Positions 3,373 through 35,342 are shown, counted from the stretch's first letter. The stretch: DNA of 64,000 nt from Candidatus Saccharicenans sp. (GCA_030017715.1 JASEIU010000004.1:139456-203455), one strand, 5' to 3'. Notes: a model not told the origin generated them from the letters alone. Translations and numbers: made by a program.

Positions 3373-4530
3373 GTGGCCAGGAGCAAAGTCCATCAATTTC
3401 CGGTTCAGTGGGTGGAAATCAGCCGCCAGGCCTTCTTAAATAACGTTCAGGAATTCAAGAACAGGCTTGGCCAGACCGGGCTGCTGGCCGTGGTCAAGGC
3501 CAATGCTTACGGGCACGGCCTGGCGGAAATTGCCGGGCTGGCTGCCGGGGCCGGAATCGAATGGTTTGGAGTGCACAGTCTGGAAGAGGGGTTGAGCCTG
3601 CGTCAGAAGGGTTTTTACCAGAAAATTCTCATCCTGGGATATCTGCCGCTGGTGGGCGCCGAGGAAGCCGTCCGGGCAGAGCTCAGGTCAACCGTTTACA
3701 ATCTGGAAACTTTAAAGGCTCTGGCCGCGGCCAGTCGAAAGCTGAAAAAGCGGGCCCTGGTTCATCTAAAAATTGAGACAGGCACCAACCGTCAGGGAAT
3801 TGGCCTGAACAAACTGGGGAGTTTTATAAAGCTGCTGAAAAAGACCCCGGAAGTGGTGCTGGAAGGCATCTCTTCCCATTTTGCCAATATCGAAGATACC
3901 ACCGACGATTACTATCCCCGCTACCAGCTCGAAAATTTTCTCCAGGCCGTAAAATATCTGGAAAACAACGGAATCAAGGTTCCGGTGCGGCACATGTCCT
4001 GCTCGGCCGCAGCTATTCTTTTTCCGGAAACGTACTTTAACCTGGCCAGGGTGGGCATCGGTCTTTACGGTCTCTGGCCGTCCAGAGAGACTATGGTTTC
4101 CTGCCGGCTTCGAGGTCAGTCGCCGCTCAGGCTGAAGCCGGTTTTGAGCTGGAGAGCCCGGGTAGCTCAGATCAAGAATGTTCCCCGGGGAGCATACATC
4201 GGTTACGGATGCACTTATCGGACGACCAGACCAACCCGGCTGGCAGTTATCCCGGTGGGTTACTATGATGGTTACGACCGGGGATTATCCAACTCGGCTT
4301 ACGTCCTGGTGAAAGGGAAAAGGGCCCAGGTCAGAGGCCGGGTCTGTATGGATTTCATCATGGTAGATATCACCGATATTCCCGGCGTCCGACTGGAAGA
4401 CCCGGTGACGCTCGTTGGAACCGAAGGCCGGGAAAAAATCACTGCCGATCAGCTGGCTGCCCTGGCCGGCACCATCAGCTATGAAATGGTAACCAGAATT
4501 AACCCGCTCATTCCCAGATTTATCGTCTAG
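3373..4530 (+). CDS. alr: alanine racemase
   Basis: The PLP-binding signature AVVKANAYGHG is near the N-terminus. Length (~385 aa) and C-terminal domain are typical. A GTG start is preceded by ggagaggataaaa. Confidence 0.9.
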   Translation: MARSKVHQFPVQWVEISRQAFLNNVQEFKNRLGQTGLLAVVKANAYGHGLAEIAGLAAGAGIEWFGVHSLEEGLSLRQKGFYQKILILGYLPLVGAEEAVRAELRSTVYNLETLKALAAASRKLKKRALVHLKIETGTNRQGIGLNKLGSFIKLLKKTPEVVLEGISSHFANIEDTTDDYYPRYQLENFLQAVKYLENNGIKVPVRHMSCSAAAILFPETYFNLARVGIGLYGLWPSRETMVSCRLRGQSPLRLKPVLSWRARVAQIKNVPRGAYIGYGCTYRTTRPTRLAVIPVGYYDGYDRGLSNSAYVLVKGKRAQVRGRVCMDFIMVDITDIPGVRLEDPVTLVGTEGREKITADQLAALAGTISYEMVTRINPLIPRFIV

Positions 4531-4990
4531 TCCGGTCCGGAAAATTAACATATACGGTTCGGCACCCTATTAACTGATGGCAAGAAAAATTTTCGCCTGA
4601 ATTTCTTCATAATTTTATGATATTTAGAGACCAGTTTGAAAGCCTGGCCGGGAAGTCAGGCCAAAAAATATCTTCCGGCTGTTTTGAATAACCCCGACCC
4701 GGACCCGAGGTGAAGCCGTATGTCGCTTCAAACTGCGGAGGATGGTTCGGCCTTTATCCTGCCGTCTAAAGCTTGAGGGCTGCGCAGCCTGTCAGCCGGC
4801 TGGCCCGGTTCTTCCGGCTGCGAGCCGGCCGGAATTTAAGAATTACGAATCACCGAGAAGACCCGGGAACAGGCTGCCGGGCCAAGGATTCCAAAACCGG
4901 GCGGATCGGACCTGAAAACCTGAACTCAAATCCCCGCCTGTCGGTAATCATTCAAGTTGAATCCGCTTATGGTCTCCGCTTATAATTCGG

Positions 4991-7900
4991 GTGATGAAAA
5001 AAGATGATAACACCCCAAAGAGGAAAAAGAGAAAATTTATAAGAACGGCTGTCCGGATCCTGCTCGGACTGGTCTTAATTCTGATTTTTTCCGGTTTGTT
5101 TCTGCAGACTCCCTGGGGCGGGAAACTGGTTCTGAGGAAAGCCGGAAACATTCTGAGAGAGAAGATGGGTCTGAGCCTGCAGGCCGACAGCTTGAAACTG
5201 AATATCTTCAGGCTAAAAGCAGCTCTGTCCGGTCTGAAGATAAGCCCGGCCGGGAAAAGTATACTGCCGGTGGAATTTATCAGCGCCGACCGGATTATTT
5301 TTCAGACCGGCTGGTCAACCATCACCGGCGGCCAGCTCAGAATTAAAGACCTGGAAATAATAAATCCGATTGTCAAATTGAAATCTGGCCAGCCCGGGCC
5401 TGAAGACCGCCAGCCAACCCCGGCCCCTCCGACACCGGAAACCGGAGCGGCTGGCATTTCTTTTCGCATCGATCATTTCCGGCTGGAGCGGGGGGCTTTT
5501 TCCTTTGAAAAACCGGCCACCCCGTTATCCATGAAACTTATCGGTCTGGAGGCCTCAGTCCAATTTGATGAGGACAGCCATTTTCATCTGGCTTCCCTGG
5601 AGGGAAAATCGGGCTCTTTGCTTTTTGGCCGGGGCCAAGCTGAAATCACCGGACTGGAAGTCAAAGCTGCCTTCAACCCGGATACAATCAGGCTGGACAG
5701 AATTTCTCTGGCCGCTGATAATGCCGCCCTCAATATTCATGGAACGGTGGAAAATTATCTTGAAAATCCAGAGCTCAACCTGAAAACCGACGGCCGCCTT
5801 GCCCTGTCGGAACTGGCGGCGATGATATGGCCGGGCCAAAAACTCGGCGGCCAGTTGAGCTGGGAACTTGGCCTGACGGGAACTGCAGCCCGGCCTGAAA
5901 TCACCGGCGGCCTTAAAATTCCCGACCTTGAAATTTATGACCTCAAGCCGGTTGACCTTAGCCTCGATATTTCTCCCTCGAGAGAAGCCGCCCACCTGGT
6001 GAAGGCGGATGTAAGTTATAAGTGGGGGCGGATGCATCTGGCGGGCACCCTGCCGCCCGGACTGAAGGGTAACCTGGAGGCTTCCTTAAGTCTGCAACGG
6101 CTTGACCTCAGGGCGCTTCAGGCGCTTTTGCCCGATTTTCCGGTTGAGCTGGCCTCGGAAATAAGCGGTCGGCTGGAATTTGAAGCCCGGGAGCTATCTG
6201 CCGACGCAATTTCGGGCCTGGCCGAGCTGAAGCTTGAGCCAACCGTTCGGTCCGGGGAGGCGGAGAGCCGACCTGCCGTTCCTGTTTCCGGCGACCTGAG
6301 TCTTTCTTATTCTGACGAAACGCTAAAGGTAAATAAACTCAACCTGGCTCTGCTGAATTCCCGGCTGGAGGTCCGCGGAAAGCTCGAATCGCTGGAAATA
6401 ATATCCGGACAGTTGACCTGGAGATTAGATGACCTGAAAGCTATAATTCAGGCCATAAAATCAAGCGGTCTTCCAAAAATGGCCGTAGGGCTGGAACAGC
6501 AGCTGTCTACCCTGGACGGGCTGAGCGGTTCGGTTCTCCTGGAGGCGCGCTTTTCGGGACAGCTCAACCGGCCGCAATTCAGCCTGGCCCTTGACGGCCA
6601 GAACCTGGGGTACGGCCAGGTTGGCCTGCCGTATCTAGAAATAAAGGCAGACGGGAACCCTGAGAAGATAAATCTCCGTCAGCTTCTCGTCACACTTGAC
6701 CATGGCCGGATAACAGCGGCCGGCGTTTTCCAGGAATTGAAGGCATCTCAAGGGACTGTTTTCAGGCTGGACGGCCGGCTGGATATATCAGACCTTGATT
6801 TATCTCAGTTTTCAGGACTTCTGGCTGAAGAAAACCGGCAGTACTTAAACGGCCTGCTTTCAGGTAAGGTGAACCTGGCCGGAACCACTGCCCGTCCCGG
6901 GGCCGATTTTCAACTGCAGGTCGCCGGGACCGAGGCCGGCACCCTGAAGCTGGAAAGCCTGGAAATTTCGGGAGAGTACAGCCCGGATGAATTGAGTTTC
7001 AATAAAATTGACCTCCGCCTCGGCCAGGAAAGCCAGCTTCAGGGCAGGATAAGTTTCCGGCCGCGATCAGGAGATGTAAGGGTCGAGCTGGAGGGTCGAA
7101 AATTAAAAGCGACTCTGTTTCAGTCGTGGCTGCCGGCACTGACATCGGGATTACTGGACCTGAAGCTCAGCGCCGTCGGACCCTGGAAAAACGCGGTGGC
7201 TGACCTGACAATAACCGGTCAGGGCTTTATGATTGACAGGATCTGGTTTCCGTACTTTGAACTGAAGGCTGACTCAGATGGCCATCTGGCCAGGGCCAGG
7301 CTTAATGTCCCCAGATTTAATCTGAGTCTGGAAACCGGGATGGAATTAAAAGAGCCCCATCTTCTTTCAGGGCTTATTCAGGTCAGGGACCTGCCACTCT
7401 CGGCCCTGGCCGGGTTGCTGCCGGAGGTGGAGGAAACCAGCCCGCTGGTTGCCCTGAGCGCTGTCACCAGGTTTTCATTGCCGCTGAGCAGCCCGGAGAA
7501 GCTGGAGGCCGAGTTTAAGTTCGAGAATTTCGATTTTGCCGGACTGGCTGTGCTGATGCCCTCTCTGGAGAGCCTCAAGCCAGGAGGCCGGGCTGACGGT
7601 CGGCTGGAATTAAAAGGATTTTCATCGGACCTGAAAGGGACGGAACTTGACCTGGAAATTCCTTCCCTTAACCTGCGGCTCGGCGGCAATGAAATCAGGA
7701 ATGAGGGGCCGCTTGCTATCCAGCTGAGGGAAGGAAAACTTCGGGTGGGCAGCTTTATCCTGAACTCCGGCCGGTCAAGATTCAGCCTCGGAGGCGGAGC
7801 CGAATTAAAAGACCCGAAAAATCCTGCCCTGGATTTTACTTTGAAGGGAGACCTGGACCTGTCTGACTTTGGCTCCTGGCTGTCCGGAATGCAGGTCGGA

Positions 7901-10900
7901 GGAAAATTGCAGCTTCAGACTGTGGTCAGGGGCGACCTCGAGGAGCCACTGATTGAAGGCTCAGGGACGATGGAAGAAGTGTTTTTGAGAATGCAGGACC
8001 TGCCCCTTATTCTGAGCAGCGCCAGCGCCAGGTTCAGGGTTGATAATTCACAGCTGGTGCTGGACAGCCTGACCGGGCTGGCCAACTCAGGCAGTTTTTC
8101 CGGCTCCGGCCGGGCTGTATTCGGACAGAATTTCTCGCTGACCTCGGCCAGAATTGATTTCAATCTCCGTGATTTTGATTTCAATTATCCGCCGGGCTTA
8201 AGCAGCCTGTCCGAAGCCAGCCTGGTTCTGAGCAAAGACCGGCGGGGCTGGGCTCTTGCCGGCGACCTTTCCATCCTTAACGCCAGCTACCGACAGGATT
8301 TTTATCCGAGCACTCAGGGCCTGAAGATGGCGTTGAGCAAAGTCTCTCCGGTCGGAACAGAATACCCGGCTTTTCTTTATGACCTACCGCTTGATATCAA
8401 TATCAGGACCATCGAGAACATAATAATCAAAAATAACCTGGCCGACCTGGAACTAAAGGCCAATCTGAACCTCAAGGGGACGATTCCCGCGCCCATTCTT
8501 TCTGGACGGGCTGAAAACGCCTACAGCGGCGAACTGATTATTGGCGAGCGAAAGTATGCCGTGGAGAGGCTCCGGGTGGACTTTCTCGGCCGGGAAAATC
8601 TCGAACCCAACCTGGACATCTTTCTTAAGAGCACGGTCTATGACCTGGAGGAAGAAGTTGAAGTCAGCCTGGTGATGTCGGGAACTCCGTCCGACTTAAA
8701 ATTCTCGCTGACCTCAGTTCCGTCCAGGTCGCAGGAAGACCTGGCCTCGCTTCTCCTGACCGGGAAAAGCCTGCGCCAGGTTCAGGGTTCTGCCCTGAAT
8801 ACCATCAGCGGACAGCTGGTCCAGCATTTTTCCAGCCCCCTGACTTCGCCCGTGACCAGGACCCTGAAAAAATGGCTGAAAGCGGAGGATGTGATCCTGG
8901 AGCCCCTGAATATCGCCACCCTTCAGGACCCCGGGGCCAGACTGACTGTCAGGAAAAGGATGACCAGAGACTTTGCCGTGACTTATTCCATCGACCTGAC
9001 CAACAGCCAGTACCAGACCTGGATTCTCGATTACCGCTTGAAACGGAATTTTTCGACCCGGGCCTTCCGCCGCGACGACGGAGTGGTCGGCTTGAACCTC
9101 AGGCACAGGCTCAATTTTGGACAGACGGCAAAAAGCGGTGGTCAGGCGAAAATCATAACCAAACAGTTGAGCCGGATTGAAATCAGCGGAGAAACTATTT
9201 TCTCCGAAGAACAGCTGACCGGGGTTGTGAAATTGAAGCCGGGGCGCAGGTACCGGACCTCCGCCATCCGGCAGGCCCGGAACCGCCTGGAAGCTTTTTA
9301 CCGGAAACAGGGCTATCTGAATGCCAGGATAGAGGATGAGGTAATCGAACAGGATGAAAACAATCTTGACTTGAAATTTTACATCCAGGCCGGTCAGCCA
9401 GCCGGATTCAAGTTCACTGGAGATAAGCTCCCGGCCAGAGTCAGAAAAAAAGCCATTAATTCCTGGGTCGGACGACTGCCAGAAGAAGCCAACCTTTATC
9501 AGCTGAAAGCTGTTCTGCTCAACGAACTTAACCGGCGGGGTTATTATAAGGCAGAGGTCAACCTGGTCAGAAAGCCCGAAAAAGGTCAAGTCCTGTACGA
9601 AGTTTCAACCAGACTTAACGGCCGCTGGAAGGTCGGAAGTTTCAAGCTGTCCGGGGACCCGGTTTTCAGGGAACCGGTTATCAGAAAAATCGTTTCTGAC
9701 TATTTTGGGGCCAGGGCCAGAGGGCTATGGAACCTGGTCTATGACCGCAAAATAGCCCTGGAGCTTATAGAATACTTTTATCAGGAAAACGGCTACCTCT
9801 CACCGAAAATTGAAGCCCCGGTGATAGAAGAGAATGACCGGAAACGCCTCCTGGACCTGACCTTGAAGATTGAAGCCGGGCCCAGAAGCCAGGTCGATTC
9901 TCTGGAAATAACCGGAAACTCCAGCTTCCAGACGGCCGAGCTGACTCGGATTTTGAACCTTCAGCCCGGCAGCGTTTTTAGCTGGCCGGCACTAAATGAG
10001 GATCGAACCGTTCTTCAGAACCGCTACCGCAGCGCCGGCTATAAGGATGTCAGGGTGGAGATAGAAGCCAGGCCGGCGGGCGAAAAGGCTGATTATGAAG
10101 TTAAAATCAATATAGAGGAAGGGCCTGTTTACACCATTTCCGGCATCGACGTTGAGGGAGCCAGGCGCACCCGGAAATCTTTTGTCCTGAAGGAAAGCGG
10201 CCTCAAGCCGGGCGAGCCGGTTAGCCTGGAAAAGCTGGCCCAGGCCCAGAAAAATCTCTATGATGCCACCAGCTTCCAGGCGGTAAATGTTTCCTCTGAA
10301 GCCGAGAGCAGCCCCGGGCACCAGGAGAAAGTCCGGGTCAGGGTCCTGGAAATGCCCTGGCTAAGCCTGACCTACGGTCTTCAGTATAACACCGATACCA
10401 GATTCGAGGGTTTTACCCAGTTTGATTTTAACAACCTCTTCGGTCGGGGATGGCATAGCTTGCTGTATTTCAGGGCCAACCAGAGACAGCAGGACGCCCG
10501 GGCCTCGCTCAAGATACCTTACCTTTTCGGCCGCAAGCTGGACTCGCTGCTGTCGCTTTTTTATCTGAAGGATATTAGAGACCTTTACATTACCGAGGAA
10601 ATAGGGGCCAGTTTTCAGCAGAAAATCATGATTGTCCGGGGATTTGACCTGAGCTGGGTATACCGTCTGAGCCGGATCCATGATTATGAACAGGAGCCTT
10701 CCTGGCCTTTTCCTTATGATATCAGGGTCACCAGCTCCGAGCTCTCCCTGCTGCTCAGTCGGGACACCCGCGACGACCGATTCGACCCCCGACATGGCAG
10801 CCTGCTGACTGGAAGCTTGAGCTATGCCCCGCGCTATCTCGGCTCCGACCTGAATTATGTCCGTTCTTTTACCCAGTTCACCATGTACAGGTCGGTTCTG

Positions 10901-11326
10901 CCCGGGGTGGTCTGGGCTTCCTGCTATCGGCTGGGGCTGGCCAGCGCTTTCGGGGAAGTCCTGATTCCCGGCAAGCGCTTCTACGCCGGCGGCGGCACCA
11001 GCATCCGCGGTTTCAGACTCGACGCCGTCGGCCCGGTCGATATCTGGACCGGCTTGCCTGAGGGCGGTGAGGCCATGCTGGTCACCAATCAGGAGTTGAG
11101 ATTTCCAATCTATAAAATTTTCAGGGGCGTGATTTTCCTTGACGCCGGCAACGTCTATTCCCGGCTATCTGATTTCAACCCGGGACGCTTGAGGACCGGG
11201 GCCGGGTTCGGCTTGAGGATTGACAGTCCGCTCGGCCTGGTCAGAATCGACTACGGCTTCAATCTCAAGCCGCGCTTGGACGAACCAAAAAGCACTCTTT
11301 TTATCAGTATCGGCCAGGCGTTTTAG
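4991..11326 (+). CDS. giant outer-membrane biogenesis protein: TamB-like (AsmA/DUF490) N-terminal ~1370 aa fused to a POTRA + Omp85 (TamA/BamA-like) C-terminal barrel
   Basis: This is a single 2111-aa ORF. It has an N-terminal signal-anchor helix (ILLGLVLILIFSGLFL). Long beta-rich repeats end in the TamB C-terminal DUF490-type signature (..SGTPSDLKFSLTSVPSRSQEDLASLLLTGKSL.. at about nt 8670-8760). POTRA-like repeats follow (..FYRKQGYLNARIEDEV.., ..YFYQENGYLSPKIE..). The C-terminus carries an Omp85 barrel (RFYAGGGTSIRGF, GVIFLDAGNV, GAGFGLRIDSPLGLVRIDYGFNL) with a terminal aromatic (..SIGQAF). Confidence 0.8.
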   Translation: MMKKDDNTPKRKKRKFIRTAVRILLGLVLILIFSGLFLQTPWGGKLVLRKAGNILREKMGLSLQADSLKLNIFRLKAALSGLKISPAGKSILPVEFISADRIIFQTGWSTITGGQLRIKDLEIINPIVKLKSGQPGPEDRQPTPAPPTPETGAAGISFRIDHFRLERGAFSFEKPATPLSMKLIGLEASVQFDEDSHFHLASLEGKSGSLLFGRGQAEITGLEVKAAFNPDTIRLDRISLAADNAALNIHGTVENYLENPELNLKTDGRLALSELAAMIWPGQKLGGQLSWELGLTGTAARPEITGGLKIPDLEIYDLKPVDLSLDISPSREAAHLVKADVSYKWGRMHLAGTLPPGLKGNLEASLSLQRLDLRALQALLPDFPVELASEISGRLEFEARELSADAISGLAELKLEPTVRSGEAESRPAVPVSGDLSLSYSDETLKVNKLNLALLNSRLEVRGKLESLEIISGQLTWRLDDLKAIIQAIKSSGLPKMAVGLEQQLSTLDGLSGSVLLEARFSGQLNRPQFSLALDGQNLGYGQVGLPYLEIKADGNPEKINLRQLLVTLDHGRITAAGVFQELKASQGTVFRLDGRLDISDLDLSQFSGLLAEENRQYLNGLLSGKVNLAGTTARPGADFQLQVAGTEAGTLKLESLEISGEYSPDELSFNKIDLRLGQESQLQGRISFRPRSGDVRVELEGRKLKATLFQSWLPALTSGLLDLKLSAVGPWKNAVADLTITGQGFMIDRIWFPYFELKADSDGHLARARLNVPRFNLSLETGMELKEPHLLSGLIQVRDLPLSALAGLLPEVEETSPLVALSAVTRFSLPLSSPEKLEAEFKFENFDFAGLAVLMPSLESLKPGGRADGRLELKGFSSDLKGTELDLEIPSLNLRLGGNEIRNEGPLAIQLREGKLRVGSFILNSGRSRFSLGGGAELKDPKNPALDFTLKGDLDLSDFGSWLSGMQVGGKLQLQTVVRGDLEEPLIEGSGTMEEVFLRMQDLPLILSSASARFRVDNSQLVLDSLTGLANSGSFSGSGRAVFGQNFSLTSARIDFNLRDFDFNYPPGLSSLSEASLVLSKDRRGWALAGDLSILNASYRQDFYPSTQGLKMALSKVSPVGTEYPAFLYDLPLDINIRTIENIIIKNNLADLELKANLNLKGTIPAPILSGRAENAYSGELIIGERKYAVERLRVDFLGRENLEPNLDIFLKSTVYDLEEEVEVSLVMSGTPSDLKFSLTSVPSRSQEDLASLLLTGKSLRQVQGSALNTISGQLVQHFSSPLTSPVTRTLKKWLKAEDVILEPLNIATLQDPGARLTVRKRMTRDFAVTYSIDLTNSQYQTWILDYRLKRNFSTRAFRRDDGVVGLNLRHRLNFGQTAKSGGQAKIITKQLSRIEISGETIFSEEQLTGVVKLKPGRRYRTSAIRQARNRLEAFYRKQGYLNARIEDEVIEQDENNLDLKFYIQAGQPAGFKFTGDKLPARVRKKAINSWVGRLPEEANLYQLKAVLLNELNRRGYYKAEVNLVRKPEKGQVLYEVSTRLNGRWKVGSFKLSGDPVFREPVIRKIVSDYFGARARGLWNLVYDRKIALELIEYFYQENGYLSPKIEAPVIEENDRKRLLDLTLKIEAGPRSQVDSLEITGNSSFQTAELTRILNLQPGSVFSWPALNEDRTVLQNRYRSAGYKDVRVEIEARPAGEKADYEVKINIEEGPVYTISGIDVEGARRTRKSFVLKESGLKPGEPVSLEKLAQAQKNLYDATSFQAVNVSSEAESSPGHQEKVRVRVLEMPWLSLTYGLQYNTDTRFEGFTQFDFNNLFGRGWHSLLYFRANQRQQDARASLKIPYLFGRKLDSLLSLFYLKDIRDLYITEEIGASFQQKIMIVRGFDLSWVYRLSRIHDYEQEPSWPFPYDIRVTSSELSLLLSRDTRDDRFDPRHGSLLTGSLSYAPRYLGSDLNYVRSFTQFTMYRSVLPGVVWASCYRLGLASAFGEVLIPGKRFYAGGGTSIRGFRLDAVGPVDIWTGLPEGGEAMLVTNQELRFPIYKIFRGVIFLDAGNVYSRLSDFNPGRLRTGAGFGLRIDSPLGLVRIDYGFNLKPRLDEPKSTLFISIGQAF

Positions 11327-11333
11327 ACGCCGG

Positions 11334-11975
11334 TTATATTCTGCTCAGCAGCGATCTGACCTGGGCCGCCTCTGGAGCTTCCGGAGCCAGGTAAAGGAAT
11401 TTCTGGAAGTGGGTGATGGTCAGGTCCTTGCGGCCTTTCTGATAATAAGCCAGCCCGATATTATAATGGGCGTAGGCATGATTGCCCTTTAACTGCAGGC
11501 ATTTCTGAAGGTCGGCGATCGACAGGTCAATTTTCTTCTGATAGCCGCGGAGCAAGCCCCGGTAGTAGTAAGCTTCGGCGCAATTGGGGTCTTTCTGGAC
11601 GGCGGTGTTGAGCTGGGTTTCAGCGCTGGTGTATTGGGCTTTGGCAATGTCATACTGAGCTTTGCCTATGTAGCCGTAGGGAGAATTGGGGGCGGACTGA
11701 AGGATCTTGTTGAAATAGGTCAGAGCGGCCTCGGGGTTTTTCTGCTTGATCAGAGCTGAACCAAGATAATAATATAGGTCGTTGTTGACAAAGTTTTCGG
11801 CCACCAGCTGGTCGAAAATGGCTTTGGCCTCGGCTGTCTTGCCGGCCTCAAAATAAGCGATGCCCGTCTGCAGCCTTTCCTGCTGGGTCTGGGCGGCCAG
11901 GGGCAGATTCAGGCTGAAGGCGAAGGCCAGCAGCAGAGTGAGGGTAATCCAGAGCCGGTTGGTTCTGATTTTCAT
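11334..11975 (-). CDS. tetratricopeptide-repeat protein with signal peptide
   Basis: The signal peptide is MKIRTNRLWITLTLLLAFAFSLNLPLAAQ. TPR-like repeats follow (AEAYYYRGLL.., AYAHYNIGLAYYQKG..). Confidence 0.65.
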   Translation of the reverse strand: MKIRTNRLWITLTLLLAFAFSLNLPLAAQTQQERLQTGIAYFEAGKTAEAKAIFDQLVAENFVNNDLYYYLGSALIKQKNPEAALTYFNKILQSAPNSPYGYIGKAQYDIAKAQYTSAETQLNTAVQKDPNCAEAYYYRGLLRGYQKKIDLSIADLQKCLQLKGNHAYAHYNIGLAYYQKGRKDLTITHFQKFLYLAPEAPEAAQVRSLLSRI

Positions 11976-28207: not shown

Positions 28208-28429
28208 ATGTCAAACGAAAAAACAAAAATAGCCAAAAACACCAAGAAGCTGCGGAAGCAACGGGATTTGTCGCACGAAAAGTTATCCAAACTTGCCGAT
28301 ATTTCACATAATATGATAATCAAAATTGAGTCCGGGGCGATTCAAAGCCCGACAATAGAAACAGCCCAAAAAATCGCCAGGGCGTTAGGGGTTACTTTGG
28401 ACGATTTAATGAAAGAAAATCATGACTAA
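28208..28429 (+). CDS. XRE-family helix-turn-helix transcriptional regulator (putative R-M controller, C-protein-like)
   Basis: The 73-aa product has a classic HTH (LRKQRDLSHEKLSKLADISHNMIIKIESGAIQSPTIETAQKIARALGV). Its stop overlaps the methyltransferase ATG by 8 nt. ORF 28190 begins at an upstream TTG; ATG 28208 is preferred. Confidence 0.8.
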   Translation: MSNEKTKIAKNTKKLRKQRDLSHEKLSKLADISHNMIIKIESGAIQSPTIETAQKIARALGVTLDDLMKENHD

Positions 28430-30905
28430 AGAACAAAAGTTTTACAAGGCATTACAGGATGTATTCATCGGCGCCAGGATTGAAGGCGAAGGCGGTTTTG
28501 TCAATTTGATGAGGATTAAATCAAGTTACTACCGTCAAATTGAAGATATTCTTAAAAAAGATATTGAAACCGCACTAAGTAGCTACCCGGCATTCAGGGA
28601 CGAACTTTTTGACAAGCTCTATTCATTTTTCAGCCGTTACTTTACGGAAAGCGGATCAATATATTTCAACCAAACGCCTTTTCATAATAATATTTATGAA
28701 AAAATTTATACCGATGAAAAGGATGTTATTCTCTTTTGGAAAACGCAGATGCTCTACTATGTCAAAACCGACCGGATTTTTAAGAGTTTGCCGGTTGAGT
28801 TTGACGGTTTCAAAATTTACTTTGACGCTTCAAAAATAGAAAACAAAAAAGCCAATGAAAAACGCTCGCTTGTTTTTGAGCTGAATGATGTCAAGGAAGA
28901 CGGCACGATTGTTTTCGGTGTTTTATATTCTGAAAAAGGGACAAAAACAAACCAAGACGAGATATTAAAAGCAATAAAGAGAAAAGGCATTGCCATTACC
29001 GAAGACCAATTGGAGCGTGCCTTTAGGGTTTTTGAAAAGCAAAGCGAGGTTGATTTCTTTATTAACAAAAATGCTAAAGCATTTTTGCAGGAACAGTTTA
29101 AGCTCTGGAGTTATCAGTATTTCTGGGAAGGGGCCAAAGAATGGAGTGCAGATAGAGTTAATCAACTGCAAAATCTCAAAAACATTGCTTTTAAGATTAT
29201 TGATTTTATCTCGCAATTTGAAGACGAACTGGTAAAAATCTGGAACAAGCCGAAGTTTGTAAAAAACTCAAATTATGTGATTACGCTGGATAGAATAATA
29301 AGTCAAATCTCAGAAGGCAAAAATCAACACTTGGAATTGATTGAGAAAATTTTTAACCATCCTAATATAAATGAGCAAATAAGGGAATGGGAAGAACTTG
29401 GGATAATAGAAGAAAAGTCAATAGTTAAAAATAAATTTTCAAAATTCAGAGGGAAAGAATTAAAGTTGATAGATGAGATATTTGAAAACACACTGGAAGG
29501 CAAGAGACTTAAAAAAGAATACGTACACCTGCCAATTGATACTAAGTATTTCAAGGATTTGGAGTTTCAGATACTGAGCCAGTTTAATGATTTGGATAAG
29601 TCATTAGACGGCTGGCTGATAAAAAGCGAAAACTACCAAGCGCTAAATACAATCCTTCCAAAATTCAAAGAAAAAGTGCAGACAATTTATATTGATCCGC
29701 CATTTAATTTAGATTCTTCTGACCAGTTTTTATATCGCACAAATTACAAAGACGCTAACTGGGCAACTTTGCTTGAAAACAGATTAAGAATTGCGAAAGA
29801 TTGGCTGAATGAAAAAGGAAGCATTTTTGTAAGGTGCGATTCAAACGGAAATTGGATAGTAAGGTTTTTAATGAACGATGTTTTTGATAACAATTTAAAG
29901 AATGAAATTGCTGTTAAAAGAACCCGCACATTGAAAGGGGAGAGAGGGCGTTTTCATACAGCGTGGGAATCTCTTTATTTCTACGCAAAATCAGAAAACG
30001 CAATTTTTAATGGTTTTAGGAAATTGAAACCAGAAAGCGAATGGCAATGGGTAGAAATGCACTTACCTGGGACTAGAAAAGACGAAGATTTACTTTATAG
30101 AAACTTTTTTGGAAAAAGACTAAAAGCACCGGAAGGACGAAGATGGGCATTAAGTCAGGATGCCTTGGATGATGCTATTTCAAAGGGATTGGTTAAAATG
30201 GATGAACAAACTGGAATGCCCAAATTCCTTACAAAATGGGAAACGCTCGGTTCTAACTGGACAGATATTTCTGGATATTCCCCAGCGCATGGTTTTACAA
30301 CAGAAAATTCAGAAGAATTATTACAGAGGGCAATAGAATCTACTTCTAATAAAAATAGTTTGGTTCTTGACTTCTTCCTTGGCTCTGGCACAACAACAGC
30401 CGTAGCTCATAAACTTGGTAGAAAATGGATTGGCGTTGAGATGGGAGAGCATTTCTATAGTGTAGTTTTGACGAGAATGAAAAAGGTCTTGGCTTATGAT
30501 AAAAGCGGGATTTCAAAAGAAGTCAAAGAATATCAAGGCGGCGGGTTTTTCAAGTATTATGAGCTGGAGCAATACGAGGAGGCGCTGGCAAATTGTAAAT
30601 ATGAAGATGGTGATTTATTCAATGCGCCCGGCAGAAGTCCGTACCAGGAATATGTCTTTATGAAAGATGAAAAAATGCTCAAGGCGTTGGAGATTGATTA
30701 TAAAAAAGGGAAAGTCAAAATTGATTTATCAAAACTCTATCCGAACATAGACATTGCCGAAACATTGTCTAACCTGACAGGAAAATGGATTAGACAAATC
30801 AAAAGTCAAAACTTAAAAATCAAAAGTGTGGTGTTTGAGGATGGCAACGAAATTGATATTGAAAACCTTGATTATAGACTAATTAAGCCATTGATTTGGT
30901 GGTAG
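28422..30905 (+). CDS. beta-class N6-adenine/N4-cytosine DNA methyltransferase (Type III Mod-like) with ~420-aa uncharacterised N-terminal extension
   Basis: Motif IV TIYIDPPFN (aa ~425) precedes motif I LVLDFFLGSGTTTAVAHKLGRKWIGVEM (aa ~650). A ~220-aa putative TRD lies between them. This order (IV before I) is diagnostic of beta-class amino-MTases such as Type III Mod. Confidence 0.85.
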   Translation: MTKEQKFYKALQDVFIGARIEGEGGFVNLMRIKSSYYRQIEDILKKDIETALSSYPAFRDELFDKLYSFFSRYFTESGSIYFNQTPFHNNIYEKIYTDEKDVILFWKTQMLYYVKTDRIFKSLPVEFDGFKIYFDASKIENKKANEKRSLVFELNDVKEDGTIVFGVLYSEKGTKTNQDEILKAIKRKGIAITEDQLERAFRVFEKQSEVDFFINKNAKAFLQEQFKLWSYQYFWEGAKEWSADRVNQLQNLKNIAFKIIDFISQFEDELVKIWNKPKFVKNSNYVITLDRIISQISEGKNQHLELIEKIFNHPNINEQIREWEELGIIEEKSIVKNKFSKFRGKELKLIDEIFENTLEGKRLKKEYVHLPIDTKYFKDLEFQILSQFNDLDKSLDGWLIKSENYQALNTILPKFKEKVQTIYIDPPFNLDSSDQFLYRTNYKDANWATLLENRLRIAKDWLNEKGSIFVRCDSNGNWIVRFLMNDVFDNNLKNEIAVKRTRTLKGERGRFHTAWESLYFYAKSENAIFNGFRKLKPESEWQWVEMHLPGTRKDEDLLYRNFFGKRLKAPEGRRWALSQDALDDAISKGLVKMDEQTGMPKFLTKWETLGSNWTDISGYSPAHGFTTENSEELLQRAIESTSNKNSLVLDFFLGSGTTTAVAHKLGRKWIGVEMGEHFYSVVLTRMKKVLAYDKSGISKEVKEYQGGGFFKYYELEQYEEALANCKYEDGDLFNAPGRSPYQEYVFMKDEKMLKALEIDYKKGKVKIDLSKLYPNIDIAETLSNLTGKWIRQIKSQNLKIKSVVFEDGNEIDIENLDYRLIKPLIWW

Positions 30906-32404
30906 GTATGGTAAAATTTAATCTATATAAAATTTATCCCGGTCAGCGAGAAAAACTTATAGAGAAGCTTAATTCTGTGGGGCTTACTAAGATAGGCAGT
31001 AAGAATATAGACGGTTTTTCTCTAGATTTTTATTTTTCAGACGAACCCGACTCCATTGATATTTGGTGGACTGATATTTATAAGGAATTTTTCGGAGAAG
31101 TAGAGAAGCCAAAAAACAAAATTTACTTCGCAACCCTACTTGTATATAATACCCAAATTGTTTATGCGGTTAGTCTTGGCAAGTCACATTTTTATTTAAA
31201 ACACTTTTGCGATGGTGATTTCGGGCTTAATTTAGCGGAAAGAATCGCCGACGAGATAAATCCAAAAATGAAAAATTCAAAGTTTTACAAAAGCCGTAAA
31301 AACAAGATTATTACAACCTATCAGGAAGGTAGCGGAATTGATTTTGATAGCGGAGAATCACTCCATTATTTGCGAGCTAAAACGATCGATAAAGACAATT
31401 GGGGTAAAACTGCAAGTTTTGGACATTCAGCTCAATTTAGTATTGAGATTAAACCCGAAGATCTACCAGATTTTATAAAAAAGATTGAAGAAACTCTAAA
31501 ACAAAAATCACGAATAAAATTGCCAAAGGTAATAGTTGCGCGGGATGAAGAAACGAAAAATAAACTTGATAATTTACTCGCCAGGGTTTTAATGGGATCG
31601 TCCCAATCATTTACGGTGCAAGAAAGTGATATTACCCTATCGGGTGTAGATTTTATATTTTCTGACCAATATGAATATAGCTTTTATTTGAGGGGAGATC
31701 GCGATTCTCAGACTGATAAGGGAGAACTTACATTAGATCGGCTGAGGCGGTTTATTTCAGAAAAAAATATCAATCTAGAAACACAACTTAACGATGTGAA
31801 AGTAAAAGTCCACAATGAGTTTGGCAGAGATTTTTCTGTTTCGCTTAAGGAGACGTTGGACTTTATAGACGAAAAAGAACGATATTGTCTTATTGACGGT
31901 AAGTGGTATCAATTTAACCAATCATATTTGGATTTCTTAAAAGAGGAAGTTGATAGTATTGATTTTAAGGAGCAGGAGGAAATCGGCGATAAGACAGAGC
32001 AGGAATTCAACCAAAGAAAAGGCCGAGAAGGATTTGTTAATTGTGATAGATTAAATGAATCTTTGTGCAAAAAGTATAAGGTGGAAAAGGTAGATTTGTA
32101 TAAAGAAAAGATACTCCACTTTGTTAAATTTGGATCTCCGAAAAATATGAACTATGCTGTGGATCAAGCAATCAACACAGTTAAGCTATTGCAAAATAAC
32201 CAAAGCAAGATTCAAATCAATGACGAAGAACAAGGCGTTGAAACGATTTGTTTGTGGCTTGTTTTTGACAGAAAACAGAAACTTAACAAACTTTCAGAAT
32301 TAAACTCATTGATATTTCATATGAAATTAGCCGATTGGAAACGAATAGTGCAAAATGCCAGATATAAACCAATGATTTATGTAAGTTATAGAAAAAATGT
32401 CTAA
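30896..32404 (+). CDS. uncharacterised 502-aa protein embedded between mod-like and res-like genes (no recognisable catalytic motif)
   Basis: The start overlaps the mod stop (TTG at 30896 or ATG at 30908 after ggtggtagg). The stop overlaps the res-like ATG (32397) by 8 nt. Composition is AT-rich like its neighbours. No P-loop, HxH or clear nuclease motif was seen; LWLVFDRK near the C-terminus is only weakly (D/E)xK-like. Confidence 0.7.
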   Translation: MVVGMVKFNLYKIYPGQREKLIEKLNSVGLTKIGSKNIDGFSLDFYFSDEPDSIDIWWTDIYKEFFGEVEKPKNKIYFATLLVYNTQIVYAVSLGKSHFYLKHFCDGDFGLNLAERIADEINPKMKNSKFYKSRKNKIITTYQEGSGIDFDSGESLHYLRAKTIDKDNWGKTASFGHSAQFSIEIKPEDLPDFIKKIEETLKQKSRIKLPKVIVARDEETKNKLDNLLARVLMGSSQSFTVQESDITLSGVDFIFSDQYEYSFYLRGDRDSQTDKGELTLDRLRRFISEKNINLETQLNDVKVKVHNEFGRDFSVSLKETLDFIDEKERYCLIDGKWYQFNQSYLDFLKEEVDSIDFKEQEEIGDKTEQEFNQRKGREGFVNCDRLNESLCKKYKVEKVDLYKEKILHFVKFGSPKNMNYAVDQAINTVKLLQNNQSKIQINDEEQGVETICLWLVFDRKQKLNKLSELNSLIFHMKLADWKRIVQNARYKPMIYVSYRKNV

Positions 32405-35342
32405 ACTTTATTTACAAAACATCATAGATGATATTTCCTTTGAAAACTTGCCGGTCAAGTGGCAGGGGTTTGATTTTAGCCGATTTTCAAAAGACAAGAC
32501 ACTTTTTGATTTTCAAAAGAAAGGTTTGCAAAACGCGTTGAAAACATTGCATCTGTATTTTAAGGATAAAAACGGAGATAAAAAAGCATTATTTGATCAC
32601 TACAAATTTAATGGCCTGGAAGAAGATTTTGATTATGATTTAAAGAAAAAACAAGATAGCAAGATTGCAAAATATCTGTTGGAATACGATAAAGATTACC
32701 CAGTCATCGATAAAAAAATTTCCTTTGTTCATTTTATTAACCGGATGAGTTTTTGGATGGCCACTGGTTCGGGTAAAACGCTGATTATAGTTAAGCTGAT
32801 TGAGCTTTTGGGTAAGCTGATTGCCGAAAAAGAGTTGCCGGCGCGCGATATTCTCTTTTTAGCCCACCGCGATGATCTTTTGGACCAGTTCAAAAACCAT
32901 GTTGAAGAATTTAATAGCTTTAACTTTGACAGAAAGATAAACCTTAAAAGTCTGCGGGATTACGAAAACGTTAAGCGCGATAATCCTTTGCCGTTTACCA
33001 AAAATGGGATTAATGTTTTTTATTACCGTTCCGACTTGATTTCCGATGAACAGAAAGAAAAAATCGTTAACTTTCAAAACTATGACAACAGCGGGCGGTG
33101 GTATATCCTTTTAGACGAAGCCCATAAGGGCGATAAAGAAGACAGCAAACGACAAATTTTATACTCCATACTTTCAAGAAACGGATTTTTGTTTAATTTT
33201 TCTGCGACATTTACCGACCCAAGGGATTTTGCGACCTGCGCTTTTAACTTCAATCTTTCAAGGTTTGTAGAAGAAGGTTACGGCAAGCATATTTATGTGT
33301 CTTCGGCCGAGATCAGCGGATTTCGCGGCCGAGGCGCTTTTTCTTCCATTGAAAAACAGAAAATCGTTTTAAAAACACTTTTGCTTTTGACCTACATCAA
33401 TAAATATTTTGAAGAAATCAGAAAGCTTAATAATTCCCTATATCACCGCCCGCTTCTTTTAACTCTCGTTAATTCCGTGGATGTGGAAGAATCCGACCTG
33501 GAGTTATTTTTTAGGGAATTAGAAAAGGTAGCGAGAAATGAAATTAGAGCGGATTCGCTTAAAATAGCAAAAGACGAACTTATCCAAGAATTTCGCCATA
33601 ACCCCAAATTCGTATTTGAAGAGTTGGAGTGCCCCATAGACGGTAATTTGGTTTCAAAATTAGATTATCAGGATATTTTGAAATATATTTTAAATGCAAA
33701 CAGGCCTGGTAAGATTGAAGTTTTGAAAATCCCCGGGAATAGGCAAGAATTGATTTTCAGGTTAATGACGTCTCATAGACCGTTTGCGTTAATTAAGATT
33801 GGCGATATTTCCAGCTGGTTGAAGAACAAACTTGAAGGATATGAGATAAATGAAAGTTTTGAGAACGAAAGCTATTTTAAGGCCATCAATTGCGATGATT
33901 CCGACCTAAATATTTTAATGGGCTCTCGCTCCTTTTACGAGGGTTGGGATTCTAACCGACCAAACCTGCTTTTGTTTGTGAATATCGGAGTTGGAAGCGA
34001 CGCAAAGAAATTCGTTCTGCAATCGGTGGGCAGAGGTGTGAGAATAGAGCCGCAAAAAAACATGAGGAAACGGTTACAAAATTTGTACAATGCTGGGATT
34101 ATAAAGGATCAGTTATTTGAGAAAGTGAAAGATTTGATTTTGCCGATTGAGAGCTTGTTTGTTTTTGGCACAAATGCTGAAAACCTGAAGGAAATAATTG
34201 CAACGCTGAAAGCAGAGAAGCAAGATGAAAATTTAGGCGACGCCTTTATTTTGAATCCGGAAGCGCAAAGACATATTCTTTTGGTGCCAGTTTATAAAAC
34301 GGCCGAGAGAATATTTGCCGAAGAACAAGTCCCGCAAAAATACGCTATCAGCCTCGAAGATTTTGAGTTGACTTCTAGATTTTATGAATTTTTAGGAGAC
34401 AAAATAATTTTGGCTAAATATGATTGTGAAGTAAATGTTTTGAAGAAGGCAAAAGATAGTTTTGAAGAAAAAGGAAGATATTATGATTTCAGCGAAAAGA
34501 ACTCTCTTTTTGATCCCGAGCTGATTCTTGGACGCATTTTTGATTATCTTGGAGTTAAAAGCAGGGAATTTGAGAAGTTTAAGAAGTTGGAAAACGAGAT
34601 CGTGCATTTCAGAAAGATTAGATTCAGCGCCATCGAAAAATACGAGGAAATAAAAAAGAAAATAGAAGTAATGAAAGAGTATCCTGAAAAGAAAAAGGAA
34701 TTAAAAGCTAAATATGGAAAGATTCCAGAAGAAGAATATAACAAGCAGTTAAAACTGTTTGAAGAAGCAGGAAAGTACGAAGTAAAAAATCAAAAAATAA
34801 AAATCAAGTATTTGGCTAATCATTACTATCTTCCGGTGATAATTTCAGAGACAGAAAAAATTGACTATCTTAATCATATTATCAATGTTGAGAGCGAAAT
34901 AAAATTTATTGAGGAGCTGGAAGAATATCTTGCCAGGTCCAAAAATGTATTTACGCAATTTGACTGGTGGATGTTTTCAAAACTTGACCAAACGCTGGAT
35001 GAAGTTTTTATTCCTTATTACAATCCGAAAGAAAACAAGATGGCCAATTTCAAGCCGGACTTCATTTTTTGGATGCAAAAAGACAATCGCTATTTAATTT
35101 TATTTGTTGATCCCAAAGGAACCGAACACGCGGATGGATATAGAAAGATTGACGGCTATTCAAGGATATTTGAAATTGAAAAAAATGGACAAAGGCAAAA
35201 TAGAGATTTTTCATACGGTAGATTTACAATAAATGCAAAATTATTGCTCAAGCCCGCGAAAGGTGGTATTGACAGGGTTCCAGAACCTCAAAGGAAATAC
35301 TGGTTTGACAACTTTGATGATTTTGCGGGCAAAATCAGTTAA
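32397..35342 (+). CDS. SF2 helicase-nuclease (Type III Res-like restriction subunit)
   Basis: Helicase motifs are I (FWMATGSGKT, aa ~120), II (ILLDEAHKG, aa ~250), III (FSATF) and VI (LQSVGRGVRIEP, aa ~545). The C-terminal PD-(D/E)xK-like endonuclease motif is FKPDFIFW..LILFVDPKGTEH (aa ~885-908). The domain order (helicase N, nuclease C) matches Type III Res. Confidence 0.85.
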   Translation: MSKLYLQNIIDDISFENLPVKWQGFDFSRFSKDKTLFDFQKKGLQNALKTLHLYFKDKNGDKKALFDHYKFNGLEEDFDYDLKKKQDSKIAKYLLEYDKDYPVIDKKISFVHFINRMSFWMATGSGKTLIIVKLIELLGKLIAEKELPARDILFLAHRDDLLDQFKNHVEEFNSFNFDRKINLKSLRDYENVKRDNPLPFTKNGINVFYYRSDLISDEQKEKIVNFQNYDNSGRWYILLDEAHKGDKEDSKRQILYSILSRNGFLFNFSATFTDPRDFATCAFNFNLSRFVEEGYGKHIYVSSAEISGFRGRGAFSSIEKQKIVLKTLLLLTYINKYFEEIRKLNNSLYHRPLLLTLVNSVDVEESDLELFFRELEKVARNEIRADSLKIAKDELIQEFRHNPKFVFEELECPIDGNLVSKLDYQDILKYILNANRPGKIEVLKIPGNRQELIFRLMTSHRPFALIKIGDISSWLKNKLEGYEINESFENESYFKAINCDDSDLNILMGSRSFYEGWDSNRPNLLLFVNIGVGSDAKKFVLQSVGRGVRIEPQKNMRKRLQNLYNAGIIKDQLFEKVKDLILPIESLFVFGTNAENLKEIIATLKAEKQDENLGDAFILNPEAQRHILLVPVYKTAERIFAEEQVPQKYAISLEDFELTSRFYEFLGDKIILAKYDCEVNVLKKAKDSFEEKGRYYDFSEKNSLFDPELILGRIFDYLGVKSREFEKFKKLENEIVHFRKIRFSAIEKYEEIKKKIEVMKEYPEKKKELKAKYGKIPEEEYNKQLKLFEEAGKYEVKNQKIKIKYLANHYYLPVIISETEKIDYLNHIINVESEIKFIEELEEYLARSKNVFTQFDWWMFSKLDQTLDEVFIPYYNPKENKMANFKPDFIFWMQKDNRYLILFVDPKGTEHADGYRKIDGYSRIFEIEKNGQRQNRDFSYGRFTINAKLLLKPAKGGIDRVPEPQRKYWFDNFDDFAGKIS

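Follow-up and report, generated by a model that had tools for sequence, protein, structure and literature searches.

Gene and domain architecture of the fusion

In a 64,000-nucleotide (nt) stretch from Candidatus Saccharicenans sp. (GCA_030017715.1, JASEIU010000004.1:139456-203455), which is called the window here and always means the stretch at its full length, we have identified a gene that encodes a TamB-like protein and an Omp85 barrel protein fused, in this order, in one polypeptide. One open frame runs without a break from 4991 to 11326 on the plus strand and counts 2111 codons from an in-frame GTG. The preliminary description of this DNA, made from the sequence alone, had given an uninterrupted open reading frame (ORF) of 2111 amino acids (aa); the open frame is confirmed, but the likely start codon is the ATG at 4994, giving a product of 2110 aa. 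This product is identical to a protein from a metagenome-assembled genome (MAG) at NCBI (P0001; assembly GCA_030018335.1, Candidatus Saccharicenans sp.), which is annotated there as “TamB domain-containing protein” and nothing more.

The order of TamB and then Omp85, with a DUF490 domain, POTRAs and a barrel following one another, had been proposed at the outset and is borne out by Pfam, NCBIfam, an AlphaFold2 model and Foldseek. Hydrophobic windows of 19 residues (Kyte-Doolittle mean >1.6) are confined to aa ~13-42, and this sole hydrophobic segment lies behind a Lys/Arg-rich N-terminus, so that the inner-membrane signal anchor claimed earlier stands; a comparable N-terminal hydrophobic segment is found in 164 of the 184 full-length family members. 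DUF748 is matched at the N-terminus with 49 bits, slightly below the Pfam cutoff of 50, and homologues carry precomputed AsmA, YhdP and TamB_N matches. The length of the TamB bridge is about equal to that of E. coli TamB. At its end the DUF490 profile PF04357 matches aa 1026-1372 (E 9e-31, 107.9 bits vs a cutoff of 22.4), covering positions 3-380 of the 381 in the profile. Further downstream, PF07244 (POTRA) is found in 4-5 stretches (E 4e-45) and PF01103 (Omp85) at aa 1814-2110 (E 6e-44), the loop-6 motif being present as “TSIRGFRLD” and the protein terminus as “GQAF”, with a terminal F in 179/184 family members. The motifs quoted in the preliminary description, namely SGTPSDLKFSLTSVPS..LLLTGKSL, GLRIDSPLGLVRIDYGFNL and the terminal F, were all found in the translation. 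Profile searches thus recognise TamB in the N-terminal part and Omp85/BamA in the C-terminal part, and the refuting conditions that the preliminary description had set on these scores do not apply.

The NCBIfam equivalogs allow a finer placement. The BamA equivalog TIGR03303 is reached with 302.4 bits by the whole protein and 308.1 bits by the Omp85 part, a borderline pass of its cutoff of 297.15, whereas the TamA equivalog NF047950 is matched with 104-110 bits, below the cutoff of 625. The proteobacterial TamB equivalog NF047952 is likewise matched below its cutoff (83 bits vs 825); judged by these profiles, the fused protein is a member of the TamB domain family that lies outside the proteobacterial TamB equivalog. 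Sequence scores against PDB entries for BamA and TamA are 71 vs 67 bits and hence non-discriminating, and the DUF490 part gave no match by sequence against the PDB. The Omp85 part had first been called “TamA/BamA-like”; its BamA half is supported by five POTRAs and by the TIGR03303 score, while the TamA half, for which three POTRAs would be expected, is abandoned.

The Omp85 part is without a signal peptide of its own, because POTRA1 starts 14 residues after the TamB end. As one polypeptide holds both parts, the TamB conduit is tethered to the Omp85 barrel, and the physical tethering that had been proposed is a direct consequence of the architecture. The coordinates of the gene, its domains and the associated features are collected in Table 1.

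Table 1. Features of the fused gene, its upstream region and neighbouring genes, in the window and in other loci (L numbers)
Feature	Position	Strand	Description and basis
Promoter-like TTGAAT-18-TATAAT	4957..4986	+	Consensus scan 10/12; ends 7 nt before ATG 4994
Fused TamB-Omp85 gene	4994..11326	+	2110 aa plus stop; in-frame GTG at 4991
N-terminal signal-anchor (inner-membrane) helix	5039..5107	+	aa ~16-38, after a Lys/Arg-rich stretch; hydropathy
Long beta-rich TamB/AsmA-like periplasm-spanning region	5120..8068	+	aa ~43-1025; DUF748 match; beta-taco from aa 960 in the model
DUF490/TamB C-terminal domain	8069..9118	+	aa 1026-1375; PF04357; DSSP of models; Foldseek; ends ...GLNLRHRLNF
Linker from last TamB strand to POTRA1	9119..9160	+	aa 1376-1389, GQTAKSGGQAKIIT; model pLDDT <50
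Five POTRA domains	9161..10351	+	aa 1390-1786; PF07244; five model units; superposes on BamA POTRA1-5
16-strand Omp85 barrel	10361..11323	+	aa 1790-2110; PF01103; TIGR03303; loop-6 IRGF; C-terminal ...FISIGQAF
Secreted TPR protein	11334..11975	-	Product of 213 aa with a signal peptide and without lipobox; gene convergent to the fused one
TPR neighbours of the fused gene in other loci	L001 9299-9985; L002 16518-17114; L004 9378-9992		Also many of L007-L081
YihY/BrkB-family genes by the fused gene	L003 9201-10004; L005 9199-9999		Also L013, L057, L070, L074, L076

Predicted structure of the junction

Aa 960-2110 were modelled with AlphaFold2 from an alignment of 47 fused homologues (mean predicted local distance difference test score, pLDDT, 78.5; predicted template modelling score 0.61). 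The model shows, in order, beta-taco strands, three helices, six terminal strands, the linker, the POTRAs and the barrel. The last of exactly six terminal TamB strands is formed by aa 1365-1375 (VVGLNLRHRLNF), and it is followed by the linker of 14 residues (aa 1376-1389), which is predicted with low confidence (pLDDT <50). The POTRA region, aa 1390-1786, is modelled as five beta-alpha-alpha-beta-beta units, and the barrel has 16 strands, with IRGF in loop 6 and GQAF at the C-terminus. At the junction, for which a model had been called for from the start, AlphaFold2 hence predicts a DUF490 fold, a flexible linker, the POTRAs and the barrel one after the other.

Foldseek aligned the Omp85 part with full-length E. 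coli BamA (E 4e-42, ~800 columns). The modelled TamB part comprises aa 960-1375 only, and the TamB end was also modelled alone, without Omp85 (AlphaFold2, pLDDT 82.3). For the TamB end alone the three best PDB matches were all TamB chains, namely 9xdc_B (hybrid barrel state of TamAB, cryo-electron microscopy (cryo-EM); E 1.9e-14, 374 columns), 9xdd_B (another TamAB cryo-EM chain) and 5vtg (a TamB crystal structure). The six terminal strands of TamB are modelled equally confidently with or without the Omp85 part.

Conservation across Acidobacteriota

A first homologue search returned ~65 proteins of 1,900-2,400 aa that share the Pfam architecture of the fusion, with identities down to 21-30%, and in ~55/60 of the homologues a single alignment crosses the junction. 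When 1.84 billion cluster representatives were searched exhaustively by HMMER with aa 1001-1813, a query that crosses the junction, 648 matches were obtained at E<=1e-30; among the best 150 representatives (at 50% identity), 150/150 match the query from ~1 to 810 in one stretch. Moreover, one genome per GTDB species was scanned with a three-sequence junction alignment, a scan that favours lineages with the motifs PGARLTVGQ and [IV]EP[NS]LIA[AN]E, its taxon list being a lower bound. At least 80 loci were found in 80 genomes, all 80 matched across the junction and nearly all labelled Acidobacteriota; the labels include Bryobacterales, Solibacteraceae, Acidobacteriaceae, Terriglobia, Vicinamibacteria, Luteitalea, Sulfopaludibacter and Aminicenantes. 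One full-length fused gene, on a 2.6-Mb contig (L074, CAWCGQ010000001.1), carries the label “uncultured Acidimicrobiia bacterium”, which refers to a monoderm class; probably, this is a mislabelled acidobacterial bin.

In about 50 of the 57 loci with complete flanks, the frame across the junction is open for ~2,000-2,500 codons. The shorter frames are colinear matches that switch frame at scattered positions and are never split at the junction. Frameshifts were seen in the MAG copies L082 (4420-7849), L080, L055, L064, L067, L050 and L085, and L082 shows in addition an apparent internal deletion of ~1,000 codons; such frameshifted copies are sequencing (indel) errors or pseudogenes. The short-frame loci were also considered as natural gene splits and rejected as such, the breaks being frameshifts or deletions away from the junction.

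The junction itself is colinear across 211 proteins. From the terminal TamB residue to the conserved Gly of the first POTRA1 strand there are 21-27 residues in 196/211 of them, the terminal TamB residue is F, L, I or W in 205/211, and G, R, A, P, K and S abound in the linker across the 211 homologues. The fused TamB part aligns up to the very last residue of an unfused TamB, and therefore the fusion consists of a complete TamB and a mature Omp85; judging from such alignments, the linker stands in the place of the Omp85 signal peptide. In a rough neighbour-joining tree, 87/90 fused Omp85 modules fall on one side of a split that holds none of the 27 stand-alone Omp85 proteins. The colinear junction together with the tightly constrained linker length points to one ancient fusion event.

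These results bear on whether the fusion could be an assembly or sequencing artefact, in which a lost stop codon or a chimeric contig joined an adjacent tamB and bamA. An unfused tamB-bamA pair with a 4-nt gap does exist in the genus and a single error could in principle fuse it, yet the halves of the window's fused gene are just ~26-27% identical to this pair, hundreds of independent assemblies, produced by several sequencing projects, have the identical architecture and junction, and the position of the BamA signal peptide is taken by a linker of conserved length. We consider the chance of an artefact to be practically negligible. The lost stop or misassembly about which the preliminary description had warned is excluded by the recurrence of the same junction in the 211 proteins, the best 150 representatives and the 80 species-level genomes, and orthologues in related genomes are likewise fused, as seen in the ~65 homologues and the 80 species-level loci.

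Co-occurrence with an unfused tamB-bamA operon

A search with the Omp85 part alone detected a stand-alone “BamA/TamA family” protein of 905 aa in Ca. Saccharicenans (P0291), 27% identical to the query. Its gene lies 4 nt downstream of a stand-alone tamB encoding 1131 aa, on contig 7 of GCA_026414545.1 (JAOAIU010000007.1), and contig 62 of the same assembly carries a fused orthologue (P0006) that is 75% identical to the window protein. Unfused pair and fusion halves share ~26-27% identity. The stand-alone BamA reaches 348 bits on TIGR03303 vs 308 for the fused Omp85, and within the genus it is 82-90% identical whereas the fused protein is 60-80% identical. It is found across Aminicenantes, where some copies are named BamA by NCBI, and outside the phylum it is most closely related to BamAs of Thermodesulfobacteria. 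At this locus (L006 4601-10718) the unfused tamB and bamA are followed by a 220-aa ORF without family match and by fabD-like and CDP-alcohol phosphatidyltransferase genes; the 905-aa BamA appears to have more than five POTRAs.

It could be argued that the fused Omp85 is itself the housekeeping BamA, with TamB attached to the essential core of the machinery for beta-barrel assembly (BAM). It has five POTRAs, it passes the BamA equivalog cutoff and full-length BamA is its best structural match; moreover, TamB of Borrelia binds BamA directly (PMC5582053, PMC11361582). Against this, the same assembly has a separate 905-aa BamA, found also across Aminicenantes, that scores higher and is more conserved, sequence change within the genus is faster in the fused protein, and the fused Omp85 modules form a clade of their own in the neighbour-joining tree. 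A housekeeping role of the fused barrel is therefore very unlikely in our view. By sequence comparison the fused barrel is an extra paralogue, separate from the cell's BamA, and the unfused tamB-bamA operon is very likely the housekeeping BAM with its TamB. The order tamB then bamA is common to both modules, and therefore read-through fusion of a duplicated operon would be the obvious origin of the fused gene.

Upstream region and neighbouring genes

The preliminary description had suggested that a leader of ~460 bp upstream of the gene may add regulation, a suggestion that is not supported by comparison with related species. The spacer between alr and the fusion measures 460 nt in the window vs ~220 nt in two sister species, and its first ~235 nt (4531-~4770) are without counterpart in these two. 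It is the final ~60 nt that are conserved in three Saccharicenans species, as TTGAATC, 17-18 nt, TATAAT, 7 nt and ATG, so that -35 and -10 elements lie inside the supposed leader. A Shine-Dalgarno sequence is absent ahead of ATG 4994, and the TTGAATC/TATAAT pair looks like a promoter that would yield a leaderless or nearly leaderless mRNA for the 2,110-codon gene. An Rfam search of 4400-5100 gave no match, and the 460-nt spacer showed no repeat copy within the window and no notable ORF. A long conserved regulatory leader at 4531-4990 was rejected in view of the absence of an Rfam match and of the ~235 nt missing in the sister species.

The fused gene is accompanied in the window by a convergent gene for a secreted tetratricopeptide repeat (TPR) protein, the only neighbour that is conserved. 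A TPR homologue adjoins the fused gene in 35 of 53 complete loci, mostly upstream, on the same strand and with a gap of 5-20 nt, and the TPR protein of the window aligns end to end with the one beside a 27%-identical fused gene (E 2e-22). Across Acidobacteriota these adjacent TPR proteins measure 195-240 aa and are without a lipobox. This secreted neighbour probably serves as an accessory subunit. Its identification as BamD was considered and rejected, with 22-26 bits vs a cutoff of 81.4 (TIGR03302/YfiO), a signal of the signal-peptidase-I type and no lipobox Cys. In some lineages lacking an adjacent TPR gene, a gene for a YihY/BrkB-family inner-membrane protein lies directly upstream or adjacent; it overlaps the start of the fused gene in L003 and is separated by a 2-nt gap in L005.

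In the window the fused gene is flanked by purA and alr upstream and a cation-efflux gene downstream, and the rest of the window is chromosomal (rpoB, rpoC, purL, purB, thyX), no further envelope-biogenesis genes being found in it. Between an oxidoreductase gene and purA, an ORF at 927-1940 matches Porin_4 (Gram-negative porin) weakly, with a score under the Pfam cutoff. Amid housekeeping DNA at 28422-35342, genes for a DNA methylase, a DUF6119 protein and a ResIII helicase stand in a row; this region looks like a type III-like restriction or defence island.

Discussion

The fused gene described here probably encodes a genuine, anciently fused, single-chain machine of Acidobacteriota that resembles the module for translocation and assembly (TAM). 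By domain membership it is a TamB plus a BamA-like Omp85, while by analogy it would work like TAM. The most likely function, suggested by the same analogy, is that of a self-tethered trans-envelope TAM serving as a conduit for phospholipid and/or outer-membrane proteins (OMPs), the lipid or protein nature of the substrate being assigned by homology only. Since the fusion is additional to the unfused tamB-bamA pair, it is likely a specialised or second conduit for envelope lipid or OMPs and not the housekeeping BAM.

In this model, Sec would export the fused chain, whose N-terminus would remain in the inner membrane. The separate canonical BamA of the cell would probably fold the C-terminal barrel into the outer membrane, and a single polypeptide embedded in both membranes would result. 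The TamB end would then sit permanently at its own Omp85 barrel, the covalent link replacing the 1:1 complex of TamA and TamB of proteobacteria, and the TPR protein would probably work together with the fused conduit. Every sequence element for a putative docking of the TamB C-terminal strand on Omp85 beta1 is present, and the barrel has a C-terminal beta-signal of its own. In its fullest form, the proposal is that the uncleaved chain spans both membranes, forms a hybrid barrel in cis and, together with a dedicated TPR subunit, makes a self-contained phospholipid conduit parallel to the TamB-BamA pair; we advance this combination tentatively, as somewhat short of probable.

Several points weigh against such a conduit. 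The chain could be cleaved at the linker after export, and the co-occurrence of fused and unfused modules depends on MAG binning. In addition, the 14 residues that lead from the membrane-proximal TamB end to POTRA1, the membrane-distal one of five, are geometrically tight, and given this tight geometry the arrangement of the TamB end may be different from that in E. coli.

Cleavage would make the fusion a polyprotein, exported as one chain and then cut at the linker by a periplasmic protease into separate TamB and Omp85, in which case the fusion would ensure only co-expression and a 1:1 stoichiometry. The linker is of low confidence in the model, its sequence varies, with many G, R, A, P, K and S residues, and in principle it is accessible to proteases; the fusion also keeps exactly every element that a free TamB C-terminus has, down to the aromatic residue at its end. 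Yet no conserved cleavage motif is visible in the linker, no protease gene is found among the conserved neighbours, and the constrained linker length, within a 7-residue range in 196/211 proteins, fits a structural tether better than a disposable spacer. We regard processing into two proteins as unlikely.

The tight geometry also raises the question of where the terminal strands of TamB dock. They might insert in trans beside another Omp85, either a second copy of the fusion or the canonical BamA, and the short linker would then hold POTRA1 near the neighbouring barrel, giving dimers or chains. From BamA geometry and the lengths involved, 14 residues are perhaps too short to reach from a cis beta1 strand to POTRA1, and in the models folding of the terminal strands does not depend on the cis Omp85 part. 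The same constraint could, however, be met by a curled POTRA arm. Moreover, E. coli TamB touches the POTRAs of TamA lengthwise via a coupling loop to POTRA2 (PMC13119328), and such contacts along the length suggest that the TamB end runs alongside the POTRAs. Docking in trans is judged rather unlikely, and docking of TamB on its own barrel is kept as the proposed arrangement.

The closest known systems include the TAM of proteobacteria. In E. coli, the DUF490 domain of TamB forms a stable hybrid barrel with beta1 of TamA via its C-terminal beta-signal strand, with lipid-like density, and the membrane holds six strands of TamB (PMC13119328). Proteins of the TamB type have a hydrophobic groove in which phospholipid is carried (PMC13119328; PMC10665443), and PMC10665443 cites a role of TamB in the anterograde transport of phospholipid. 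Like the fusion, the E. coli TAM has an inner-membrane-anchored TamB whose DUF490 end comprises three helices and six strands, the last of them beta-signal-like, and a partner Omp85 barrel with POTRAs, with a presumed transfer of phospholipid and/or OMPs (PMC13119328, PMC11014939). In the proteobacterial TAM, however, tamA and tamB are separate, with tamA first, and TamA carries three POTRAs, whereas in the fusion TamB precedes Omp85 and five POTRAs are present. The unfused tamB-bamA pairs of Saccharicenans (L006) and of Spirochaetes/Borrelia (PMC4494059; PMC5582053) resemble the fusion in that tamB comes first and the partner is of the BamA type instead of TamA, but they encode two proteins and their BamA retains a signal peptide that the fusion lacks. 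A second BamA with a link to TamB was reported in Acidobacteria by Heinz et al. (2015, PMC4494059), who proposed that TamA originated from such duplicates. This “second BamA” belongs to the same phylum as the fusion and is likewise an extra BamA-like Omp85 tied to TamB; yet it is described as an operon of separate genes, some with seven POTRAs, and a fusion is unmentioned there.

The closest conceptual precedent for one chain bridging both membranes is the long MlaD of Veillonella parvula (PMC10665443), which also joins an inner-membrane anchor to a C-terminal outer-membrane barrel in a proposed phospholipid bridge. The families are nonetheless unrelated, and long MlaD has an MCE domain, a helical tube and a 10-strand barrel, forms a hexamer and is proposed to act in the retrograde direction. 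In chloroplasts, the inner-envelope TamB homologue TIC236 bridges to the outer-envelope Omp85 TOC75 (bioRxiv 10.1101/2021.04.25.441383); unlike the fusion, these are separate proteins, with a role in protein import. Fusion of an Omp85 to the counterpart of one of its partner subunits has a precedent in the Omp85 proteins with a WD40-like domain at the N-terminus (“BamA-BamB-like fusion”; Heinz & Lithgow 2014, PMC4104836), although their partner domain is a periplasmic beta-propeller and that of the TamB-Omp85 fusion is a membrane-anchored trans-envelope bridge.

In 8 million open-access papers and preprints, with subscription literature outside this scope, no description of a fusion of TamB with BamA, TamA or another Omp85 was found, and a single-chain version of TAM is apparently undescribed. 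Public databases label these proteins just as “TamB domain-containing” or “YaeT”, and therefore the architecture is easily overlooked, though it is implicitly visible in domain databases. The TamB-Omp85 fusion is mechanistically informative, although the fusing of interacting partners is a familiar evolutionary pattern.

The fusion touches on two open questions, the route of phospholipids to the outer membrane and the real role of TAM. Recent cryo-EM work argues that a stable hybrid barrel with TamA holds TamB at the outer membrane, and an ancient and widespread covalent fusion of TamB to Omp85 is independent support for such a permanent 1:1 bridge. It also adds a hard topological constraint, in that no more than about 14-20 residues may separate the C-terminus of TamB from POTRA1, and it poses a biogenesis problem, because one chain must reach both membranes. 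Two TamB/Omp85 modules are present in Acidobacteriota, which are a major phylum of soils, and one module is accompanied by a conserved candidate TPR partner. If the proposed conduit is true, the conserved tether of ~14-20 residues fixes the relative positions of the TamB C-terminus and POTRA1. The fusion would then serve as an experiment of nature that limits the current structural models of TAM, and it might show how partners of the TamA type came from duplicated BamA.

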